Shown: positions 1 through 7,745 of the stretch, piece by piece | Numbering within the stretch: position 1 is the stretch's first letter | Layout of the letters: each line of letters begins with the position of its first letter | Origin: a virus | Lineage: Duplodnaviria > Heunggongvirae > Uroviricota > Caudoviricetes | Length of the DNA: 7,745 nt | Direction: 5' to 3' (one strand) | Virus record (IMG/VR): IMGVR_UViG_2671180921_000004 | Coordinates: 1 to 7,745 of that record | Translations under genes and position numbers: made by a program | Notes under the pieces: generated by a model | The model's input: only the letters and a program-made list of their open reading frames with translations | What the model was told of the DNA's origin: nothing | The model's database searches: none

Positions 1-16
1 GATAGCCATAAGTGTT

Positions 17-157
17 TTATCCATTTTGGGGAACTCCTGGCTGATTAAGTACGTCGATGAGTCGTTTCCATCCGTCACGTAATTTACGTGTGATTCGCTC
101 AAGTAAAGATTCGGAAGGGCAGCCAGCAACAGGCCACCCTGCAATGGCATATTGCAT
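17..157 (-). CDS. cIII: cIII-like regulatory protein (FtsH/HflB inhibitor that stabilises cII), 46 aa
   Basis: Not in the ORF track (under 60 aa). Minus-strand translation from the ATG at 157 gives MQYAIAGWPVAGCPSESLLERITRKLRDGWKRLIDVLNQPGVPQNG*, matching lambda cIII as I recall it almost residue for residue over the N-terminal 43 aa. A TAAGGAG Shine-Dalgarno lies about 6 nt upstream. Stop TAA is at 17-19 (plus-strand tta). Confidence 0.8.
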   Translation of the reverse strand: MQYAIAGWPVAGCPSESLLERITRKLRDGWKRLIDVLNQPGVPQNG

Positions 158-262
158 GGTGTGCTCCTTATTTACGCTTTAAATTGCTCCGTGTATTCAC
201 TCGTTGGAATGAATACACAGTGCAGTGTTTATTCTGTTGTTTATGCCAAAAATAAAGGCAGA

Positions 263-886
263 CTATGCGGCCTCGGAAGGAAGTCCAATCATCTTATTCA
301 AATCTTCTACCCGTAAAGCAGGAAGTGCTGTACTTGCTTTATCTGCTTCTTTTGGTAGCAATTCTTTGCTTTCAGGCCAAACTTCAATAAGTCGCTTAAC
401 TGTTGTGACTGAGTTCAAAGCAGCCCATACATTTGATTCGATATCCTTTTTCTTGTCTTCAAGTTTTTGTTGCAATGCGCAGATTTCATCAAACCTTTTT
501 GTTATTTCGTGTTCTGCGTCAAACATGCATTTATCTTTGGTCGGAGTAGGGAGCAATATATCTTCGCCGTTGCCGTCTTTCCCATATGAATGCCATCCAA
601 CCCTTCTGCCAGATACAGTCAGATAAATCGAAGTAGAACGAACATCGCATGAGTAAAATGAACATCCCATCTTTTCAAGTTCTTCACTTATAGCTACTAA
701 CCTGGATGATAACTGATCCACTTCATCAGTTTTCTTTTTACCGCCAAACGCAATAACTCTGGCGTCAAGTGCAAGCTGGTTCTTTAACTTTGTTACTTCT
801 TCAAGTTCAGTGAAAACCCCAGACTTAATTAAAGCGTTACGAGCGATTTCCTCTTTCATTCTCGTAGTTAAGCGGATTGATGACAT
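263..886 (-). CDS. hypothetical early-left (PL operon) accessory protein, 208 aa
   Basis: Long minus-strand ORF (track 263..946). The start was chosen at the internal ATG at 886 (MSSIRLTTRMKEE...), which is preceded by GAGAGGA; the longer track ORF would run to within 2 nt of the N stop. Same orientation as cIII and N. No family recognised from the sequence alone. Confidence 0.6.
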   Translation of the reverse strand: MSSIRLTTRMKEEIARNALIKSGVFTELEEVTKLKNQLALDARVIAFGGKKKTDEVDQLSSRLVAISEELEKMGCSFYSCDVRSTSIYLTVSGRRVGWHSYGKDGNGEDILLPTPTKDKCMFDAEHEITKRFDEICALQQKLEDKKKDIESNVWAALNSVTTVKRLIEVWPESKELLPKEADKASTALPALRVEDLNKMIGLPSEAA

Positions 887-947
887 ATTAATTCCTCTCA
901 AATAAGTGGTTTGCTGCCTAATTTCATTTTCTGGCGACCAACACAAG

Positions 948-1220
948 TCATCTTGCTGTCAGTTGTTTGGATTTCCGGTAGCCTGCCGCGTAAAGAGCTA
1001 CGTTCGGAAGACAAGTTGAGCCTTCATATTTTCTGGTCAACGTTGTCAGTGTTATTACTTCTGCTCTCATTGCTGGTTTGCGCTTGCATTGCAAGACCAC
1101 TCGAGAGGGGGTTGGTCTGTGTAGCTTGTCGGAGCTAATCGCCTCCTGACTTTGCAGGTTTGCGCGACGAGCTCTACGACGAGAAGCTGAGGTGCCTTTA
1201 AATTCTGTTTTTCTGGACAT
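948..1220 (-). CDS. N: N-like transcription antitermination protein, 90 aa
   Basis: Start taken at the ATG at 1220 (MSRKTEFKGTSASRRRARRANLQSQ...), preceded by GGGAGGA. The N-terminal arginine-rich motif SRRRARRA resembles the lambda N ARM (QTRRRERRAEKQ). The C-terminus LPNVALYAAGYRKSKQLTAR resembles the P22 gene 24 (N-like) C-terminus as recalled. It lies immediately downstream of the nutL and PL elements. Confidence 0.75.
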   Translation of the reverse strand: MSRKTEFKGTSASRRRARRANLQSQEAISSDKLHRPTPSRVVLQCKRKPAMRAEVITLTTLTRKYEGSTCLPNVALYAAGYRKSKQLTAR

Positions 1221-1318
1221 AGATTCCTCCCGAATAAACTTTGGTGATGCAATCTCGAAGCTCCTCCTGAGACGGTTGCTTCGGCATTGCATCCCACAGC
1301 TCATGTGGTTGGGTGATC

Positions 1319-1365
1319 TGGCTTTTCAGCCACGTAGTCGAGAGTTCGACGTTGTTTAAAGAGCC
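1319..1365 (-). promoter_or_regulatory. nutL: nutL site: boxA-like GCTCTTTAAACAAC (1351-1364) and boxB hairpin UGGCU-GAAA-AGCCA (1319-1332) on the leftward transcript
   Basis: Read on the minus strand, GGCTCTTTAAACAACG is followed 18 nt later by TGGCTGAAAAGCCA (5-bp stem, GAAA loop). Both elements have near-identical counterparts at nutR (4084-4129). Position between PL and N matches lambdoid layout. Confidence 0.6.
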
Positions 1366-1410
1366 TGCCAGTCTGTTCCGTTTGGCTTCCAGCGTCCTGC
1401 TGACGGTTAA

Positions 1411-1439
1411 ATAGTACGATATGTACTTTATTGGGTCAA
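1411..1439 (-). promoter_or_regulatory. PL promoter with embedded operator (OL1-like): -35 TTGACC (1434-1439), 17-bp spacer, -10 TACTAT (1411-1416)
   Basis: Minus-strand read is TTGACC-caataaagtacatatcg-TACTAT. The spacer and -10 region carries AAAGTACATATCGTACT, which is 15/17 identical to a motif in the PR spacer (3813-3829). Confidence 0.55.
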
Positions 1440-1625
1440 TACGATTTGTTCTAAAATAGGGTGGTTTTTTATAACACTTTGTATTTAATAGTGTTGTTTT
1501 TTAGCGTGGGTGTATCGCCTCGGCGATGTAAGGAGAGATCAGAATTGCGTGGTTTAGTGAGTTGTATCTATTTATTTTTCAATAAATACATTTGGTTATG
1601 TGTTTTTAGGTGGCGAACGTGAGGC

Positions 1626-1651
1626 AAAGAAAACCCGGCGCTGAGGCCGGG
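1626..1651 (-). terminator. rho-independent terminator closing the leftward cI/TAC transcription unit
   Basis: On the minus strand the hairpin CCCGGC-ctcagc-GCCGGG (plus 1634-1651) is followed by TTTTCTTT (plus 1626-1633). It sits 10 nt downstream of the stop of the SecB-like gene. Confidence 0.6.
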
Positions 1652-1660
1652 TGGGGAATT

Positions 1661-2065
1661 TCACTTATTACTGTTCGTTTCCATGGGATTGGCCAAGAAA
1701 TCAAAATAAGGCAGAGTGAACCTACCAAGATTTGACATGAGGATAATTTGCTCGGCATATGTTTTTATATAGGGATATGCCATATTGGGAGCAATGGACC
1801 TTACCTCATATGATTTTGCCATTTCATGAGAAAAATCATCTTCTGACCGGAAGTCAAAGTCGTATGTGATGTCCATCTCAAGCCTGCCTTCAATAGTTAC
1901 GGAGGCAAAATATCTCACTCTAAATAGCTTTGAATCCTTCACATTAGTGTAAAGTTCATTATTTAGATTAACGGTTGTTTTTATGGCTTTTTTTGCTGTT
2001 GAATCGCCTTCTAGCCGTGTCATAACCAAGCGTTCAACTTTTTTGCTAATGAGTTCAATTTTCAT
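1661..2065 (-). CDS. SecB-like chaperone, third gene of a toxin-antitoxin-chaperone (TAC) cassette, 134 aa
   Basis: ORF track 1661..2065. Its start ATG overlaps the upstream gene's stop by 4 bp (ATGA), indicating translational coupling. The C-terminal region ...SIAPNMAYPYIKTYAEQIILMSNLGRFTLPYFDF... resembles the E. coli SecB segment ...[38 protein letters not shown]... as recalled. Size is similar to SecB. Product call is from memory-based similarity only. Confidence 0.6.
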   Translation of the reverse strand: MKIELISKKVERLVMTRLEGDSTAKKAIKTTVNLNNELYTNVKDSKLFRVRYFASVTIEGRLEMDITYDFDFRSEDDFSHEMAKSYEVRSIAPNMAYPYIKTYAEQIILMSNLGRFTLPYFDFLANPMETNSNK

Positions 2066-2718
2066 GGTAATAATAAGTAATTTCCGTCAGAAGTCATTTC
2101 GTCATTCAGGTTGCTAGCCGCTGTGAAACTTGATGACAAGTTACTTATCAAAGAAAAAACATTCCGTTTTTCTTTGCATTTGCCGTTACCCCTTACTGCG
2201 CTGAACAACATTTTTGAAAAGTAAGATTCTGTAGCCTTTTCAGCGAAATAAGCAGAAGGTGATGTGACGGCTGACTCACACCGAGCAATGACGCTAGTCA
2301 TGGCTGTTTCTTCTTCCTCTGCGTCAACTAGGCTCCATTCAATTGCGCTCATATCTTGAATTAAGATATCTGCAGGAATTCCAAGTCCGTCATGTAGTCT
2401 ACGGATCATTGAAAGACTTAATGGACGCTTACGATTTAAGACCTCAGATACTTTAGATGCTGAGCCAATGTATTGTTTCATATCGGCATAAGAGAGGCCT
2501 TGTTGATCCATACGGAACTTGATTGCTTCTATGGGATCTGGCTTGTCCATAGGGAACTCGCGTGACTCATAGTGCTCGATAAGCAAGCCTAGTAGTTCAA
2601 ACTCATCAAAATCTTCAGTTCCAGGTTGTAAATCACTAGACGCAAGTTCAATGAGCCTTTCCATAGCTGCAGCATGCTCTTCACTATTTTTAATGATGCG
2701 CCAGCTAGTTCGATTCAT
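2062..2718 (-). CDS. higA: HigA-family HTH (XRE-type) antitoxin with a ~96-aa C-terminal extension, 218 aa
   Basis: ORF track 2062..2718. Residues about 66-121 (IKFRMDQQGLSYADMKQYIGSASKVSEVLNRKRPLSLSMIRRLHDGLGIPADILI) align with the HTH end of E. coli HigA (...IRTLMDQYGLTLSDLPEIGSKSMVSRVLSGKRKLTLEHAKKLATRFGISPALF) as recalled. GGAGG lies 5 nt upstream of the ATG. 4-bp ATGA overlaps with the HigB stop upstream and the SecB-like start downstream. Confidence 0.8.
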   Translation of the reverse strand: MNRTSWRIIKNSEEHAAAMERLIELASSDLQPGTEDFDEFELLGLLIEHYESREFPMDKPDPIEAIKFRMDQQGLSYADMKQYIGSASKVSEVLNRKRPLSLSMIRRLHDGLGIPADILIQDMSAIEWSLVDAEEEETAMTSVIARCESAVTSPSAYFAEKATESYFSKMLFSAVRGNGKCKEKRNVFSLISNLSSSFTAASNLNDEMTSDGNYLLLP

Positions 2719-3002
2719 TTAAGCCTCCACTTGTCGTACTCTGCATGAGTTCCAACTCTTTCAACTATGACCATTCCTGCCTGGTAAACAACTTGGACAA
2801 CGAGCCGATAGTTATTGCCTTTTATATTAAAAATTACCCTGTTGTTAGGAAGGAAGTCGGCAGAATTAAATCTATTCCGTATGTCTTGAGTCGTTTTCCA
2901 GTTTTCTCTTATCACTTCATCATACCAAGAGTCTAAAGCCCCCTTGGCCTGATTGTGCTTCCGGCTAAAACTGTGAAGCTTCTCTACGTTTAAGACCTTC
3001 AT
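2715..3002 (-). CDS. higB: HigB-family toxin (RelE/ParE superfamily mRNA interferase), 95 aa
   Basis: ORF track 2715..3002. The segment NRVIFNIKGNNYRLVVQVVYQAGMVIVERVGTHAEYDKW aligns with E. coli HigB HYVFNVGGNELRVVAMVFFESQKCYIREVMTHKEYD as recalled. Toxin-first gene order is typical of higBA. Confidence 0.85.
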   Translation of the reverse strand: MKVLNVEKLHSFSRKHNQAKGALDSWYDEVIRENWKTTQDIRNRFNSADFLPNNRVIFNIKGNNYRLVVQVVYQAGMVIVERVGTHAEYDKWRLK

Positions 3003-3024
3003 AATCCGATTTTGTTCCCTCTTT

Positions 3025-3057
3025 GGGAATTATAGATTCATTTCCCATAAAGGGAAT
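3025..3057 (-). promoter_or_regulatory. putative promoter and operator of the higB-higA-secB-like operon: -10 TATAAT (minus strand, plus 3029-3034) flanked by GGGAAT / TTCCC-ataaa-GGGAA inverted repeats
   Basis: A perfect TATAAT hexamer on the minus strand lies 26 nt upstream of the higB ATG. GGGAAT occurs at 3025-3030 and 3052-3057, with TTCCC at 3042-3046 forming the dyad TTCCC-ATAAA-GGGAA. No good -35 is visible. Antitoxin autoregulation sites are typically palindromes over the promoter, which is the basis for the operator call. Confidence 0.35.
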
Positions 3058-3087
3058 CTGTATTTTTATCCAGAAATGCTATGTACA

Positions 3088-3747
3088 TCACCCAAACGTC
3101 TCTTCAGGCCACTGGCTAGCGATAACTTTCCCCACAACGGAACAACTCTCATTGCATGGGATCATTGGGTACTGTGGGTTTAGTGGTTGTAAAAACACCT
3201 GACCGCTATCCCTGATCAGTTTCTTGAAGGTAAATTCATCACCACCAAGTCTGGCTATGCAGAAATCGCCGGGCTCAACAGCTTGCTCTGGGTCAACCAG
3301 AATTAACATCCCGTCAGGAAAACTAGGTTTGGAACCTGTTGGGGCGGTCATTGAGTTACCTTCAACCTCAAGCCAGAATGCAGAGTCACTGGCTTTTTTG
3401 GTTGTGCTTACCAATCTCTCCGCATCGCCTTTGGTAAAGGTTCTGAGTTCTGGAGAGAACATCCCAGCCTGAACATGAGAAAAAACAGGGTACTCATATT
3501 GTTTTTTAACTGGGGCCGATGAGTATTCGCCAACAGGTGAAAATGTCCCGTCGTGGTTGAATGATATGTTATCAATACCAAGGTATTTAAACACCACACC
3601 AATATCACTAAGAGATGGATGACGAGATCCGCGCAACCAGTGTCCAATCCCACCCTGCGTCATACCTAGCTCTTCGGCTAACTTCTCTTGAGTTATGCCG
3701 AGCTCTTTCATTCTGGATCTAGCCAGTTCATACCATTTCATTTTCAT
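3088..3747 (-). CDS. cI: cI-type prophage repressor: heterologous N-terminal HTH domain fused to a lambda-cI-like C-terminal LexA/S24 autocleavage and dimerisation domain, 220 aa
   Basis: The C-terminal ~135 aa ([28 protein letters not shown]...[18 protein letters not shown]) are near-identical to lambda cI as recalled, including the Ala-Gly cleavage region and the catalytic Ser/Lys context. The N-terminal ~85 aa ([45 protein letters not shown]...) are not lambda-like. Start taken at the ATG at 3747 (alternative ATG at 3741); the track ORF extension to 3909 would cross the operator region into cro and is rejected. Confidence 0.9.
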
Positions 3748-3857
3748 GTCCTTATTATTACGCTCTGTATTGCAACCATCCATGCACAATGTGTATTTTT
3801 GCTTGCATTCAAAAAGTACATATTGTATTTTTTCTTCATGGTTACTATGGAGGGCAT
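3748..3857. promoter_or_regulatory. OR region with divergent PRM/PR; PR -35 TTGCAT (3803-3808) and -10 TATTTT (3826-3831); operator-like repeats with TGTATT cores at about 3760-3775, 3784-3799 and 3813-3829
   Basis: 110-bp gap between divergent cI and cro. The motif AAAGTACATATTGTATT (3813-3829) sits in the PR spacer and -10 and matches the PL spacer motif at 15/17 positions. Two further related repeats (CACAATGTGTATTTTT, CTCTGTATTGCAA) recur at about 26-32 bp spacing. Confidence 0.55.
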
Positions 3858-4073
3858 ATGAGCAACCTACGAAAATATCGAGAGTCACTGAATATCTCTC
3901 AAACAACACTTGCTAAGGCAGTTGGATGCACACAGGGAGCTATCGGACATTGGGAATCTGGTCGTCGCTTCCCAGACCTTAAAACATGCCGTGCTCTTGT
4001 TGCGTGTCTAAACAAGTTAGGCGCAAAAGTAAGTCTTGATGACGTGTTCCCGCCGGAGCACAAATCCGCTTAA
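3858..4073 (+). CDS. cro: Cro-like HTH (XRE-family) regulator, 71 aa
   Basis: Start at ATG 3858 with GGAGGG 4 nt upstream. The HTH region [24 protein letters not shown] parallels the cI N-terminal HTH ([24 protein letters not shown]), as expected for two proteins sharing operators. Divergent from cI. The longer track ORF from 3789 lacks an RBS and overlaps the operators. Confidence 0.8.
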
Positions 4074-4083
4074 TAAGCGGAGC

Positions 4084-4129
4084 CGCTCTTTGTAACAACG
4101 GACATTCGTCCTACGTCGCTGAAAAGCGA
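4084..4129 (+). promoter_or_regulatory. nutR: nutR site: boxA CGCTCTTTGTAACAAC (4084-4099) and boxB hairpin UCGCU-GAAA-AGCGA (4116-4129)
   Basis: Immediately downstream of cro. Near-identical in architecture and sequence to the nutL elements on the opposite strand (boxA GCTCTTT..AACAAC; boxB N-GCU-GAAA-AGC-N). Confidence 0.6.
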
Positions 4130-4214
4130 GCCCCAAGATATCTGACCAACTAAGGCCATATGCGTTTCCACGCATACCTTTCAACTAACTATTCACTATT
4201 GGAAATCTTAAGAA

Positions 4215-4511
4215 ATGGAACAAACAAGTTACAGCAAACTATCACAGCGTGACGTTGATCGCGCAGAAACAGATTTACTCATCAACCTGTCAACGCTTAC
4301 CCAGCGTGGTCTGGCAAAGATGATTGGCTGTCATGAATCGAAGATAAGCAGAACGGACTGGCGGTTTATTGCTTCGGTCTTGTGTGCTTTCGGAATGGCA
4401 TCAGACATCAGTCCAATTAGCAGGGCTTTTAAGTATGCGCTTGATGGAATCACAAAGAAAAAACGCCCGGCGGCAACCGAGCGTTCTGAACAAATCCAGA
4501 TGGAGTTCTGA
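4215..4511 (+). CDS. cII: cII-like transcriptional activator, 98 aa, with a lambda-identical C-terminal tail and a divergent N-terminal region
   Basis: The C-terminal 18-19 aa (KKKRPAATERSEQIQMEF) match the lambda cII C-terminus as recalled. The N-terminal ~80 aa differ from lambda. Position between cro/nutR and O is canonical. Confidence 0.8.
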   Translation: MEQTSYSKLSQRDVDRAETDLLINLSTLTQRGLAKMIGCHESKISRTDWRFIASVLCAFGMASDISPISRAFKYALDGITKKKRPAATERSEQIQMEF

Positions 4512-4533
4512 GGTCATTACTGGATCTATCAAC
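4457..4533 (-). ncRNA. oop: oop antisense RNA (about 77 nt), antisense to the 3' end of cII, with its rho-independent terminator
   Basis: The minus-strand sequence GTTGATAGATCCAGTAATGACCTCAGAACTCCATCTGGATTTGTTCAGAACGCTCGGTTGCCGCCGGGCGTTTTTT matches the lambda oop RNA as recalled. GC-rich hairpin (plus 4464-4483) followed by a U-tract. Confidence 0.6.
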
Positions 4534-4543
4534 AGGAGTCATT

Positions 4544-5443
4544 ATGACAAATACAGCAAAAATACTCAACTTCGGCAGAGGTAACTTTGCCGGACAGGAG
4601 CGTAATGTGGCAGATCTCGATGATGGTTACGCCAGACTATCAAATATGCTGCTTGAGGCTTATTCAGGCGCAGATCTGACCAAGCGACAGTTTAAAGTGC
4701 TGCTTGCCATTCTGCGTAAAACCTATGGGTGGAATAAACCAATGGACAGAATCACCGATTCTCAACTTAGCGAGATTACAAAGTTACCCGTCAAACGGTG
4801 CAATGAAGCCAAGTTAGAACTCGTCAGAATGAATATTATCAAGCAGCAAGGCGGCATGTTTGGACCAAATAAAAACATCTCAGAATGGTGTATCCCTCAA
4901 AACGAGGGAAAATCCCCTAAAACGAGGGATAAAACATCCCTCAAATTGGGGGATTGCTATCCCTCAAAACAGGGGGACACAAAAGACACTATTACAAAAG
5001 AAAAAAGAAAAGATTATTCGTCCGAGAATTCTGGCGAATCCTCTGACCAGCCAGAAAACGATCTTTCTGTGGTTAAACCGGATGCTGCAATTCAGAGCGG
5101 CAGCAAGTGGGGAACAGCAGAAGACCTGACCGCCGCAGAGTGGATGTTTGACATGGTGAAGACCATCGCGCCATCAGCCAGAAAACCGAATTTTGCTGGG
5201 TGGGCTAACGATATCCGCCTGATGCGTGAACGTGACGGACGTAACCACCGCGATATGTGTGTGCTTTTCCGCTGGGCCTGCCAGGACAACTTCTGGTCCG
5301 GTAACGTGCTGAGTCCGGCCAAACTCCGCGACAAGTGGACCCAGCTCGAAATCAACCGTAACAAGCAACAGGCAGGCGTGACAGCCAGCAAACCAAAACT
5401 CGACCTGACAAACACTGACTGGATTTACGGGGTGGATTTATGA
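4544..5443 (+). CDS. O: replication initiation protein O (origin-binding), 299 aa
   Basis: Translation matches lambda O as recalled (MTNTAKILNFGRGNFAGQERNVADLDDGYARLSNMLLEAY...). AGGAG RBS upstream. Contains the ori iterons internally. Stop overlaps the P start (ATGA). Confidence 0.95.
   Translation: MTNTAKILNFGRGNFAGQERNVADLDDGYARLSNMLLEAYSGADLTKRQFKVLLAILRKTYGWNKPMDRITDSQLSEITKLPVKRCNEAKLELVRMNIIKQQGGMFGPNKNISEWCIPQNEGKSPKTRDKTSLKLGDCYPSKQGDTKDTITKEKRKDYSSENSGESSDQPENDLSVVKPDAAIQSGSKWGTAEDLTAAEWMFDMVKTIAPSARKPNFAGWANDIRLMRERDGRNHRDMCVLFRWACQDNFWSGNVLSPAKLRDKWTQLEINRNKQQAGVTASKPKLDLTNTDWIYGVDL
4892..5016. other. origin of replication (ori-lambda type): four ~19-bp iterons with internal dyad TCCCTC-N5-GAGGGA, followed by an AT-rich DNA-unwinding region
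   Basis: Iterons visible at about 4892-4910, 4911-4930, 4931-4955 and 4956-4980 (ATCCCTCAAAACGAGGGAA, ATCCCCTAAAACGAGGGAT, ATCCCTCAAATTGGGGGAT, ATCCCTCAAAACAGGGGGA), then AAAAGACACTATTACAAAAGAAAAAAGAAAAGATTA. Located inside the O coding sequence as in lambda. Confidence 0.85.
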
Positions 5444-6141
5444 AAAACATCGCCGCACAGATGGTTAACTTTGACCGTGAGCAGATGCGTCGGATCGCCA
5501 ACAACATGCCGGAACAGTACGACGAAAAGCTGCAGGTACAGCAGGTTGCGCAGATCATCAACGGTGTGTTCAGCCAGTTACTGGCAACTTTCCCGGCGAG
5601 TCTGGCTAACCGTGACCAGAACGAACTGAACGAAATCCGCCGCCAGTGGGTTCTGGCTTTCCGGGAAAACGGGATCACCACAATGGAACAGGTTAACGCA
5701 GGAATGCGCGTAGCCCGTCGGCAGAATCGACCATTTCTGCCATCACCCGGGCAGTTTGTTGCATGGTGCCGGGAAGAAGCATCCGTTATCGCCGGACTGC
5801 CAAACGTCAGCGAGCTGGTTGATATGGTTTACGAGTATTGCCGGAAGCGAGGCCTGTATCCGGATGCAGAGTCTTATCCGTGGAAATCGAACGCGCACTA
5901 CTGGCTGGTTACCAACCTGTATCAGAACATGCGGGCCAATGCGCTTACTGATGCGGAATTACGCCGTAAGGCCGCAGATGAGCTTGTCCATATGACTGCG
6001 AGAATTAACCGTGGTGAGGCGATCCCTGAACCAGTAAAACAACTTCCTGTCATGGGCGGTAGACCTCTAAATCGTGCACAGGCTCTGGCGAAGATCGCAG
6101 AACTCAAAGCTAAGTTCGGACTGAAAGGAGCAAGTGTATGA
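5440..6141 (+). CDS. P: replication protein P (DnaB helicase loader), 233 aa
   Basis: Translation matches lambda P as recalled (MKNIAAQMVNFDREQMRRIANNMPEQYDEK...). ATGA overlap with the O stop. Confidence 0.95.
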   Translation: MKNIAAQMVNFDREQMRRIANNMPEQYDEKLQVQQVAQIINGVFSQLLATFPASLANRDQNELNEIRRQWVLAFRENGITTMEQVNAGMRVARRQNRPFLPSPGQFVAWCREEASVIAGLPNVSELVDMVYEYCRKRGLYPDAESYPWKSNAHYWLVTNLYQNMRANALTDAELRRKAADELVHMTARINRGEAIPEPVKQLPVMGGRPLNRAQALAKIAELKAKFGLKGASV

Positions 6142-6428
6142 CGGGCAAAGAGGCAATTATTCATTACCTGGGGACGCATAATAGCTTCTGTGCGCCGGAC
6201 GTTGCCGCGCTAACAGGCGCAACAGTAACCAGCATAAATCAGGCCGCGGCTAAAATGGCACGGGCAGGTCTTCTGGTTATCGAAGGTAAGGTCTGGCGAA
6301 CGGTGTATTACCGGTTTGCTACCAAGGAAGAACGGGAAGGAAAGATGAGCACGAACCTAATTTTTAAGGAGTGTCGCCAGAGTGCCGCGATGAAACGGGT
6401 ATTGGCGGTATATGGAGTTAAAAGGTGA
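6138..6428 (+). CDS. ren: Ren protein (confers resistance to Rex exclusion in lambda), 96 aa
   Basis: Translation MTGKEAIIHYLGTHNSFCAPDVAALTGATVTSINQAAAKMARAG... matches lambda Ren as recalled. ATGA overlap with the P stop. Confidence 0.8.
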   Translation: MTGKEAIIHYLGTHNSFCAPDVAALTGATVTSINQAAAKMARAGLLVIEGKVWRTVYYRFATKEEREGKMSTNLIFKECRQSAAMKRVLAVYGVKR

Positions 6429-6453
6429 CCATCTACATCACTGAGCTAATAAC

Positions 6454-6486
6454 AGGCCTGCTGGTAATCGCAGGCCTTTTTATTTG
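6454..6486 (+). terminator. rho-independent terminator (tR2-like) downstream of ren
   Basis: Hairpin AGGCCTGC-tggtaatc-GCAGGCCT (8-bp perfect stem) followed by TTTTTATTT on the plus strand. Confidence 0.65.
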
Positions 6487-6500
6487 GGGGAGAGTAAATC

Positions 6501-6707
6501 GTGGTTGAGTTGATTTTTTCTGCATTGAGGATTCTCGGTGCTATGTGGATGGTGTCGACGTTCATTGCGGTTGTCGGAAGTTTTGTCCGGTTGGTAGGCG
6601 AAGGTAAAGACCTGGTGGGTGTGCTGTTCGGTAGCATTCTCCTGTGGGTGATTATCGGTGTTGCGCCTGTCGCTGTAGCAAAAATGGCGTGGCGTTTTGT
6701 TAGTTGA
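6501..6707 (+). CDS. small hydrophobic protein with two predicted transmembrane segments, 68 aa (GTG start)
   Basis: ORF track 6501..6707. Two hydrophobic stretches (ILGAMWMVSTFIAVVGSFV and LVGVLFGSILLWVIIGVAPVAVA). GGGGAGAG lies about 6 nt upstream of the GTG. Coding status is uncertain: short, non-ATG start. Confidence 0.4.
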   Translation: MVELIFSALRILGAMWMVSTFIAVVGSFVRLVGEGKDLVGVLFGSILLWVIIGVAPVAVAKMAWRFVS

Positions 6708-6714
6708 GGGGAAT

Positions 6715-6993
6715 ATGAGCGAGATCTACCGACAATTCGAAGAGTGGTGGTCAAAACACAAAAGCCCGTTCACGGAAGACGATGAGCTAAAAGAGTTTGC
6801 CTGGGAGATATGGCAGGCATCGCGAGCAACTATTGAACTGGATATCGACTGGCCCGAATCGAATGACGACTTTTGGAAAGATGGTGAAGAAGGTGCTTAT
6901 GCGATGGGTTATGAGGATGGGCGTGACAAAACGGTAATTGCAGTAATGAAAGCCATCAGGGCCGCAGGAATCAAAGAAAAGAATTTCGATTAA
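6715..6993 (+). CDS. hypothetical small acidic, Trp-rich protein, 92 aa
   Basis: Start taken at ATG 6715 (MSEIYRQFEEWW...), preceded by GAGGGG. About a quarter of residues are Asp/Glu. No recognised family. Confidence 0.55.
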   Translation: MSEIYRQFEEWWSKHKSPFTEDDELKEFAWEIWQASRATIELDIDWPESNDDFWKDGEEGAYAMGYEDGRDKTVIAVMKAIRAAGIKEKNFD

Positions 6994-7125
6994 GCAAATA
7001 TCACTTCAATAAATCGCTTTTAAGGCATCACAATCGCTCTGTAGTGAGGTAAGTGCGTGCAAGGAATGCCGATAAGCAGCGAGAATGAAAAATGCGTCAG
7101 AATGCGTTTGAGGAGGTTTTAAGAA

Positions 7126-7341
7126 ATGAGTACGGTAGCTGAACTTGTCAGGGCTAATTTTCGTGAAGAGTTGGTGCGTTGGTATCGGTATCGTTCATCG
7201 TCCAGTTTGCCGCTTGATGAGTTGTATGAGCATTCACCTGCCGCACGACGCTATCCGCGTGACCGTGTTCTTCGACGGTTGTTCAAACTCAACAATGAGT
7301 TTCAGCGCAACAGAATTATCCGGAGTCTGGATTTAAAGTGA
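7126..7341 (+). CDS. hypothetical small basic protein, 71 aa
   Basis: ORF track 7126..7341. Strong AGGAGG RBS about 9 nt upstream of the ATG. Arg-rich. No recognised family. Confidence 0.45.
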   Translation: MSTVAELVRANFREELVRWYRYRSSSSLPLDELYEHSPAARRYPRDRVLRRLFKLNNEFQRNRIIRSLDLK

Positions 7342-7351
7342 AGGAGTGAGC

Positions 7352-7534
7352 ATGAGCGAGCAAATATTCAGAGAGATTAAGCCACGGTTTTATCGCAAGG
7401 TAAGGGTGGTTTATCAGGACGAAAACAAGACCTGTGCATACGCCATTCATAATGGTCGGTGGTCAGTGTTCGACACCAAAAACTTCGAGAAGAACTTCGA
7501 GAGGATTAAGGGTGATGAGGAAACTAACATTTGA
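7352..7534 (+). CDS. hypothetical small protein, 60 aa
   Basis: Start taken at ATG 7352 (MSEQIFREIK...) with AAGGAG 5 nt upstream; the track ORF begins at the GTG at 7346. Its 3' end overlaps the ninB-like start by 20 nt. Confidence 0.45.
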   Translation: MSEQIFREIKPRFYRKVRVVYQDENKTCAYAIHNGRWSVFDTKNFEKNFERIKGDEETNI

Positions 7535-7745
7535 ACTAAGAAGCCCCATCCATCAGCAGAACGCCATTCCAGCTAGCCAGCAAATCCTGCCAGCCCCAAC
7601 CTAACCAACCGTAGTAACCATTCAGGACCGCAACCGTAGCTTAGACCACAACCGAAAGCTCCGAGATTGCCCTGGTGACGTCTCGCGTCAGGTTGAATGG
7701 CCGGATAGTTGTCTGGATGCCGAAAGCTGGACGTGTGTGTTTACC
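7515..7745 (+). pseudogene. ninB: ninB/Orf-family recombination protein homologue, interrupted by an in-frame TAA at 7602-7604 and truncated by the window end
   Basis: Frame from ATG 7515 reads MRKLTFELRSPIHQQNAIPASQQILPAPT*PTVVTIQDRNRSLDHNRKLRDCPGDVSRQVEWPDSCLDAESWTCVFT, versus lambda NinB MKKLTFEIRSPAHQQNAIHAVQQILPDPTKPIVVTIQERNRSLDQNRKLWACLGDVSRQVEWHGRWLDAESWKCVFT as recalled. The stop replaces the Lys codon at position 30. Not in the ORF track because of the stop. Confidence 0.5.

Follow-up and report, generated by a model that had tools for sequence, protein, structure and literature searches.

A probable promoter-operator with two HigA sites upstream of the HigBAC antiphage cassette of a lambdoid prophage

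Introduction

HigBAC is an antiphage toxin-antitoxin-chaperone system, which was described by Mets et al. in Escherichia coli NT1F31 and is located there in a variable locus downstream of cI in a lambdoid prophage (bioRxiv 10.1101/2024.02.24.581848). In that work expression was driven by PBAD or Ptet (the Ptet construct included 150 bp of native upstream DNA), and HigC was required for HigA solubility; operator, autoregulation and native promoter are unmentioned in the paper (bioRxiv 10.1101/2024.02.24.581848). For the related E. coli hig system, one source gives similar operator affinities for HigA and for the HigBA complex (PMC10135005), and another refers to O1-O2 sites (PMC12266136). The Salmonella homologue SehB has two palindromes on the putative -35 and -10 boxes (PMC7160566). 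Our literature searches returned no described TTCCC/GGGAA HigA operator, no paper on HigBAC regulation and no transcription start data for higB of Stx phages.

We analyzed a stretch of 7,745 nucleotides from a tailed phage record (IMG/VR IMGVR_UViG_2671180921_000004, positions 1 to 7,745), which is called the window below. It carries a HigBAC cassette behind a cI-type repressor gene, and the short region between these genes is the subject of this report.

Results and Discussion

Genes of the window and identity of the cassette

The window is the immunity region of a lambdoid prophage, with the N antiterminator gene, the HigBAC cassette and the repressor gene on the minus strand and cro, cII, O and P on the plus strand (Table 1). 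A 21-nt inverted repeat, 86% complementary, pairs 1409-1429 in the N-higC intergenic region with 3813-3833 in the cI-cro intergenic region, and these repeats are probably the CI operators at PL and PR. The product of the minus-strand ORF downstream of N (263-946) is 227 aa long and matches nucleotide modification associated domain 5 at full length (Nmad5, E = 9e-71); it is an unusual cargo for an early-left operon and had no PADLOC match.

Table 1. Positions of the genes and predicted regulatory features in the window.
Feature	Position	Strand	Evidence or remark
N antiterminator gene	948-1304	minus	
HigBAC three-gene cassette	1661-3002	minus	
Intrinsic terminator right after higC, operon end	1633..1652	minus	7-pair stem (6 G-C) and T-run
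higC, SecB-like chaperone, 134 aa	1661..2065	minus	PADLOC PD-T4-9_C (CmdC), E = 3e-11; UniRef name SecB
higA, antitoxin, 218 aa	2062..2718	minus	homology to structures 5YCL and 5IFG (E. coli K-12 HigA)
higB, toxin, 95 aa	2715..3002	minus	Pfam HigB_toxin PF09907, E = 4.5e-30; PADLOC PD-Lambda-2_A
Proximal dyad O2, TTCCC-TCTTT-GGGAA	3015..3029		exact palindrome; centre 3022, 20 nt before higB ATG
Predicted transcription start	3021..3023	minus	6-8 nt past -10, inside O2; predicted from sigma-70 geometry
-10 hexamer TATAAT of the proposed higBAC promoter	3029..3034	minus	sequence; invariant in relatives
Distal dyad O1, TTCCC-N5-GGGAA	3042..3056		exact palindrome; centre 3049, 47 nt before higB ATG
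Weak -35-like TTCCCT, left arm of O1	3051..3056	minus	3/6 matches, 16-nt spacer
A-rich block CTGGATAAAAATACAG upstream of O1	3058..3073	minus	near-invariance in relatives
cI-type repressor gene	3088-3747	minus	HTH_3 and Peptidase_S24; upstream of, and outside, the promoter-operator element
cro, cII, O and P genes		plus	

PADLOC assigned HigB to PD-Lambda-2 A and the N-terminal part of HigA to PD-Lambda-2 B. HigA contains an N-terminal domain and a helix-turn-helix, followed by a C-terminal chaperone-addiction extension (residues 122-218). It matched 5YCL_A and 5IFG_B across the helix-turn-helix region in phmmer (E = 5e-5), and its Pfam HTH_3 match was under the gathering score (20.9 vs 23 bits). 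The nearest solved structures for HigB and HigA are those of HigB and HigA from E. coli K-12 and Shigella. The third protein, HigC, whose function as a SecB-like chaperone is established, was assigned by PADLOC to the SecB-like chaperone of CmdTAC; it had no match to any Pfam or NCBIfam model, SecB included, and the CmdC model of PADLOC alone recognized it.

Both gene junctions, higB/higA and higA/higC, are 4-nt overlaps (ATGA), which suggests translational coupling of the two pairs. A good Shine-Dalgarno sequence was absent before higB (3003-3014), with just GGA or GGG at 2-3 nt from the ATG, and this weak site may keep toxin translation low. The terminator hairpin after higC is strong and has equivalents 3' of higC in relatives, called on the sense strand in L091 and on the opposite strand in L085 and L087.

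All eight residues named in the published work are present at the published positions (W128, F158, F188 and Y214 of HigA; Y39, N41, R49 and D71 of HigC), and the HigA length of 218 aa is equal to that of NT1F31 HigA. Because every named residue is present, the cassette, as judged from these residues, gene order and HigA length, is NT1F31 HigBAC or a near-identical copy of it. HigBAC was carried by 88 of 5,426 complete E. coli genomes (~1.6%), and the carriers include Stx phages of O157:H7 strain 86-24 and O26:H11 strain 11368. In the record of phage ST2-8624 (L002, KU238070.1; 3618-3905) there is no higB CDS, and higA and higC are given as hypothetical proteins. It means that this defence system is unannotated in several Stx phage records.

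From 1600 to ~3115 the window has 99.6% identity to Stx phages (BP-4795, ST2-8624 and many Stx1a phages), and the identity then ends, which indicates a mosaic junction ~25 nt inside the cI C-terminus. Other prophages have DUF1828 cargo or rexAB at this same position.

Two dyads and the promoter elements

The original prediction for this region was a HigA operator overlapping an independent promoter, based on a TATAAT hexamer and flanking repeats upstream of higB. The hexamer is correctly located on the minus strand (3034..3029), 26 nt (3028..3003) before the higB ATG (3002..3000), and we verified GGGAAT on the plus strand at 3025-3030 and 3052-3057 and TTCCC-ATAAA-GGGAA at 3042-3056. The repeat pattern was incomplete in one respect: GGGAAT at 3025-3030 is an arm of a second perfect dyad, O2, whose other arm (3015-3019) had been missed.

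O1 and O2 have the same arms and their centres are 27 bp apart. TATAAT sits between them, and its last base is common to the hexamer and O2. These two dyads are the only exact TTCCC-N5-GGGAA occurrences in the 7745-base window, with a chance expectation of 0.01 per window in 200 dinucleotide shuffles, none of which contained two or more. TATAAT on its own is statistically unremarkable, and the case for it as a -10 element comes from its invariance in relatives. A third dyad with one mismatch, TTCCCCACAACGGAA, was noticed at 3128-3142, 86 bp from the O1 centre; it lies within the cI coding sequence, and as an operator candidate it was treated as probable chance for this location.

According to sigma-70 criteria the -10 is perfect, and the best -35, TTCCCT, has 3/6 matches at a 16-nt spacer. 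A consensus promoter scan of the window, with a threshold of at least 4/6 in each hexamer, called no promoter at the TATAAT site because of this weak -35, and we did not count the missed call against the promoter since the scan demands at least 4/6 in the -35. The TG of an extended -10 is absent at the proposed promoter. The A-rich block spans about -36 to -51 relative to the predicted start, the location expected for an UP element; it is possibly an UP-element-like promoter enhancer, and this conserved block may compensate for the weak -35. A second, leaderless promoter with CAAAAT at 3014..3009 was considered by analogy with single-dyad loci; it was not supported, as its -35 has just 1/6 matches and the hexamer is not conserved in relatives.

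The cI stop codon is at 3088-3090, and no intrinsic terminator was called on the sense strand between cI and higB (3088-3002). The single terminator-like call in this interval is on the opposite (+) strand and is weak; it consists of O1, with 5 pairs (3 G-C), and a T-run. In RNA reading through from cI, a helix of ~14 bp between the two dyads (3015-3056) is possible, and it is not significant against shuffles; this helix would be absent from a transcript starting at the cassette's own promoter.

Conservation upstream of higB

HigA homologues were aligned, and at least 80 loci of distant relatives, mostly plain two-gene higBA, were taken. Among the matches listed, these loci belong to Gamma-, Beta- and Deltaproteobacteria, Bacteroidota, Chloroflexota, Verrucomicrobiota and Spirochaetota, and their HigA proteins show 48-61% identity over the N-terminal domain and helix-turn-helix for most and 39-40% for two. 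The footprint count was restricted to 60 loci among the matches listed with a placeable higB start, whose upstream regions are otherwise unalignable. Exact TCCC-N5-GGGA was found at most 80 nt upstream of higB in 47 of these 60 listed loci, and most of the remaining ones had the motif with one mismatch. Still among the matches listed, the density was 49 sites in 4.8 kb upstream vs 2 in 429 kb elsewhere in the same loci, an enrichment of ~2,190-fold, for which the Poisson P of ~1e-144 is not a true probability because the loci are related. The site centres of the listed matches have two modes, at about -20 and -47 from the start codon, and the dyads of the window are exactly at -20 (3022) and -47 (3049).

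The promoter context of the motif differs between groups. Betaproteobacterial loci have a single dyad, which occupies the whole 17-nt spacer from a TTGnnn to a TAnnnT hexamer; judged by this layout, it is the textbook arrangement of a promoter with an operator built into it. Four gammaproteobacterial loci (L020, L008, L004 and L024) have dyad-TATAAT-dyad in the 27-bp register, with nothing else conserved there. In the single-dyad betaproteobacterial higBA loci (L018-L068) the -10-like hexamer ends ~7 nt before the higB start, so the higB mRNA would be leaderless or nearly so, vs a leader of ~20 nt in the family of the window.

Ten HigBAC relatives with HigB 69-96% identical were collected from Klebsiella, Salmonella, Serratia, Citrobacter and metagenomes. 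Eight of them lie behind repressor genes of differing families (Peptidase_S24 CI, Phage_CI_repr), with intergenic gaps of ~130 to 260 nt between repressor and cassette. The other two have no called upstream repressor: L093 adjoins tail-fibre genes and L095 comes after a DUF927 gene. When 11 HigBAC upstream regions were aligned (HigB 69-100% identical), both dyads (TTCCCTTT..GGGAA and TTCCCA.A..GGGAAC), TATAAT and all spacings were invariant, while variation was present in the 5' leader, in the dyad spacers and in 6 of the 7 columns that separate O1 from the -10. The A-rich block (3073..3058) was near-invariant in 9 of the 11 sequences despite differing upstream genes. The same block of ~75 nt is located before higB both where the upstream genes are unrelated repressors and at L093 and L095, where the genes called upstream are not.

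Covariation with HigA and reverse search

The core TCCC/GGGA is constant across the family, and the outer base pair shifts with the HigA recognition helix. Helix SK(V/A)SE(V/I)L goes with TTCCC...GGGAA (21 of 21 perfect sites), NRVYE(V/I)L with GTCCC...GGGAC (16, plus 3 with A...C) and GRVSEVL with CTCCC...GGGAG (3 of 3), all among the matches listed, and SMVSRVL of E. coli K-12 with TTGCC...GGCAA (1); since these classes largely coincide with clades, they stand for few independent events. Recognition of these bases by the HigA helix-turn-helix would be expected to give such covariation of helix and half-site.

For a reverse search, the two-dyad pattern alone (20 specified bases, no -10 required) was used against 2.9 million IMG/VR viral contigs. 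Among 38 exact two-dyad stretches, 36 were located 12-17 nt upstream of a higB homologue (32-100% identity) that was followed by higA. TATAAT or TATACT was present in 15 of the 17 distinct higB-linked two-dyad sequences from IMG/VR. Two exact matches in G+C-rich viral contigs, L100 (13342-13383) and L109 (183-224), had no HigB-like ORF nearby, and they may be due to chance or to a different regulator.

Proposed regulation of higBAC

We consider it quite probable that 3015-3073 is the native promoter-operator of the higB-higA-higC operon, with two HigA sites placed around a sigma-70 promoter. This promoter, PhigBAC, would consist of the -10 TATAAT (3034..3029), the weak -35 TTCCCT inside O1 and the A-rich upstream block, and transcription would start near 3022. 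Each dyad would bind a dimer of the helix-turn-helix antitoxin HigA. O1 covers the -35 position, O2 overlaps the last -10 base and the predicted start, and HigA binding at O1/O2 would exclude RNA polymerase, giving negative autoregulation. Since HigA depends on HigC for solubility, the repressing species in vivo is probably an assembly of all three proteins, in which HigC keeps HigB-HigA in solution. The distance of 27 bp is 2.6 helical turns, so the HigA dimers would be on different faces of the DNA, which would favour independent binding over side-by-side cooperative binding.

The operator part of the original prediction is supported by the family-wide motif, the invariance in close relatives, the helix covariation and the reverse search. 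Its independent promoter finds support in the invariant register of TATAAT, the presence of the block at sites without a repressor gene and the geometry shared with K-12, with the poor -35 standing against it. The original prediction also held that such a promoter would let the cassette be expressed independently of PRM read-through from cI; this read-through probably adds to the proposed promoter and is not replaced by it. With no sense-strand terminator after cI, transcripts from PRM probably also enter the operon in lysogens, and in this prophage the cassette could be expressed without a promoter of its own. Such a contribution of read-through in the lysogen is likely, as in lambda cI-rexAB.

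An own promoter would allow expression wherever the cassette lands. It would explain why the match to Stx phages BP-4795 and ST2-8624 extends from the terminator across the intergenic region and is lost only at ~3115, inside the 3' end of cI, why the cassette works behind unrelated repressors, and why it is present at sites without an upstream repressor gene. HigBAC is an experimentally validated anti-phage system, of which the probable promoter and two operators are now defined, and this element would explain its function after recombining behind unrelated repressors or into other prophage sites.

A more speculative reading, which we regard as possible and rather doubtful, is that the operator pair is part of the phage-sensing circuit and, beyond homeostasis, amplifies abortive infection through transcriptional feed-forward. 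HigC has to hold the chaperone-addiction tail of HigA for HigA to stay soluble. If HigC were titrated by the phage major tail protein, HigB would be freed and O1 and O2 vacated together; the promoter would then be derepressed and fresh higB mRNA made. HigA on the operators might also stop PRM read-through, which would insulate the toxin dosage from CI levels.

Alternative explanations

The dyads could be HigA sites without a functional promoter, so that the operon would be transcribed by PRM/cI read-through only and HigA would act as a roadblock or attenuator. This fits with the weak -35, the missing call in the consensus scan, the cI-higB interval without terminator and the location of most HigBAC relatives directly downstream of a repressor gene. 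However, TATAAT keeps a fixed register to both dyads in all 11 sequences while the neighbouring bases vary, the same block is present at L093 and L095, where the upstream genes called are not repressors, clear -35/-10 hexamers surround the dyad in distant two-gene relatives, and the geometry is homologous to the K-12 higBA promoter. We consider a layout without promoter unlikely for these reasons, and prefer the sigma-70 promoter with two HigA sites.

It is very improbable, in our estimation, that the repeats act as RNA in the cI-higB read-through transcript, where a hairpin or a helix between the dyads would serve as terminator, processing site or translational control. O1 and O2 can pair mutually in the predicted RNA fold (-23 kcal/mol), but the z-score of the fold is -1.84, with 9 of 200 shuffles folding at least as well, and the stems are of 5 pairs each with no sense-strand U-tract. 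The terminator-like score of O1 with its T-run belongs to the opposite (+) strand, on which no gene is known to be transcribed towards the dyad site. Moreover, the TCCC/GGGA arms are conserved across phyla as sequence and not via compensatory changes, and the sole arm changes track the HigA recognition helix. The same tracking speaks against binding of another regulator (phage CI, Cro or a host factor), which the location in the immunity region beside cI could suggest: the motif covaries with HigA and travels with higBA in non-phage chromosomal contexts of many phyla, whereas the candidate CI operators near 1409-1429 and 3813-3833 are different sequences. Chance repeats are disfavoured by the expectation of 0.01 dyads per window, and we consider both another regulator and chance very improbable.

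Comparison with known systems

The TAC system of Mycobacterium tuberculosis (HigB1-HigA1-SecB-like Rv1957) is likewise a tripartite operon with a helix-turn-helix HigA carrying a chaperone-addiction extension. HigA1 reportedly represses a promoter upstream of higB1. The toxin and antitoxin families and the operator sequences differ from those of the window, and the system is chromosomal and not prophage-borne. Its antitoxin is degraded by ClpXP, whereas NT1F31 HigA is not.

Phig of Proteus vulgaris (Rts1) HigBA also belongs to a toxin-first operon, with inverted-repeat O1 and O2 overlapping the -35 and -10. There a HigA dimer binds each operator, with or without HigB, and full repression needs both. 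In contrast to this likeness in layout, the HigB and HigA families are unrelated to ours (RelE-type HigB, other helix-turn-helix antitoxin), the operator sequences differ, and the P. vulgaris complex does not bind E. coli hig operator DNA.

With NT1F31 HigBAC the window shares gene order, the 218-aa HigA, the position downstream of cI in a lambdoid prophage and the eight named residues. The difference is in what was studied, as the published work used PBAD/Ptet and the native promoter was not studied there.

The element represents the standard autoregulation design of type II toxin-antitoxin systems, and its closest relative, K-12 higBA, is already characterized. The newer parts, neither of which turned up in our literature searches, are the assignment of such an element to the HigBAC defence system and the family-wide consensus (T/G/C)TCCC-N5-GGGA(A/C/G) with an apparent recognition code. 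E. coli K-12 higBA is also a toxin-first operon with a PF09907 HigB and a HigA of the same N-terminal domain and helix-turn-helix. Upstream of K-12 higB there are TTGCCA-ATCT-GGCAA, 14 nt including TATCAT, and then TTGCCA-ATTT-GTCAA. Both regions therefore have two 5-N5-5 dyads, with the left arm of O1 at the -35 and the -10 just before O2. The -35 in O1 is TTGCCA (5/6) in K-12, 16 nt before TATCAT, and TTCCCT (3/6) in the window, 16 nt before TATAAT. The half-site is TTGCC with helix SMVSRVL in K-12 but TTCCC with SKVSEVL in the window, and the dyad centres are 29 bp apart in K-12 vs 27 bp in the window. Unlike K-12 HigA, that of the window has a 96-residue chaperone-addiction tail and needs HigC. 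Judged from these shared positions of dyads and hexamers, the promoter-operator architectures of the window and of K-12 higBA are homologous.
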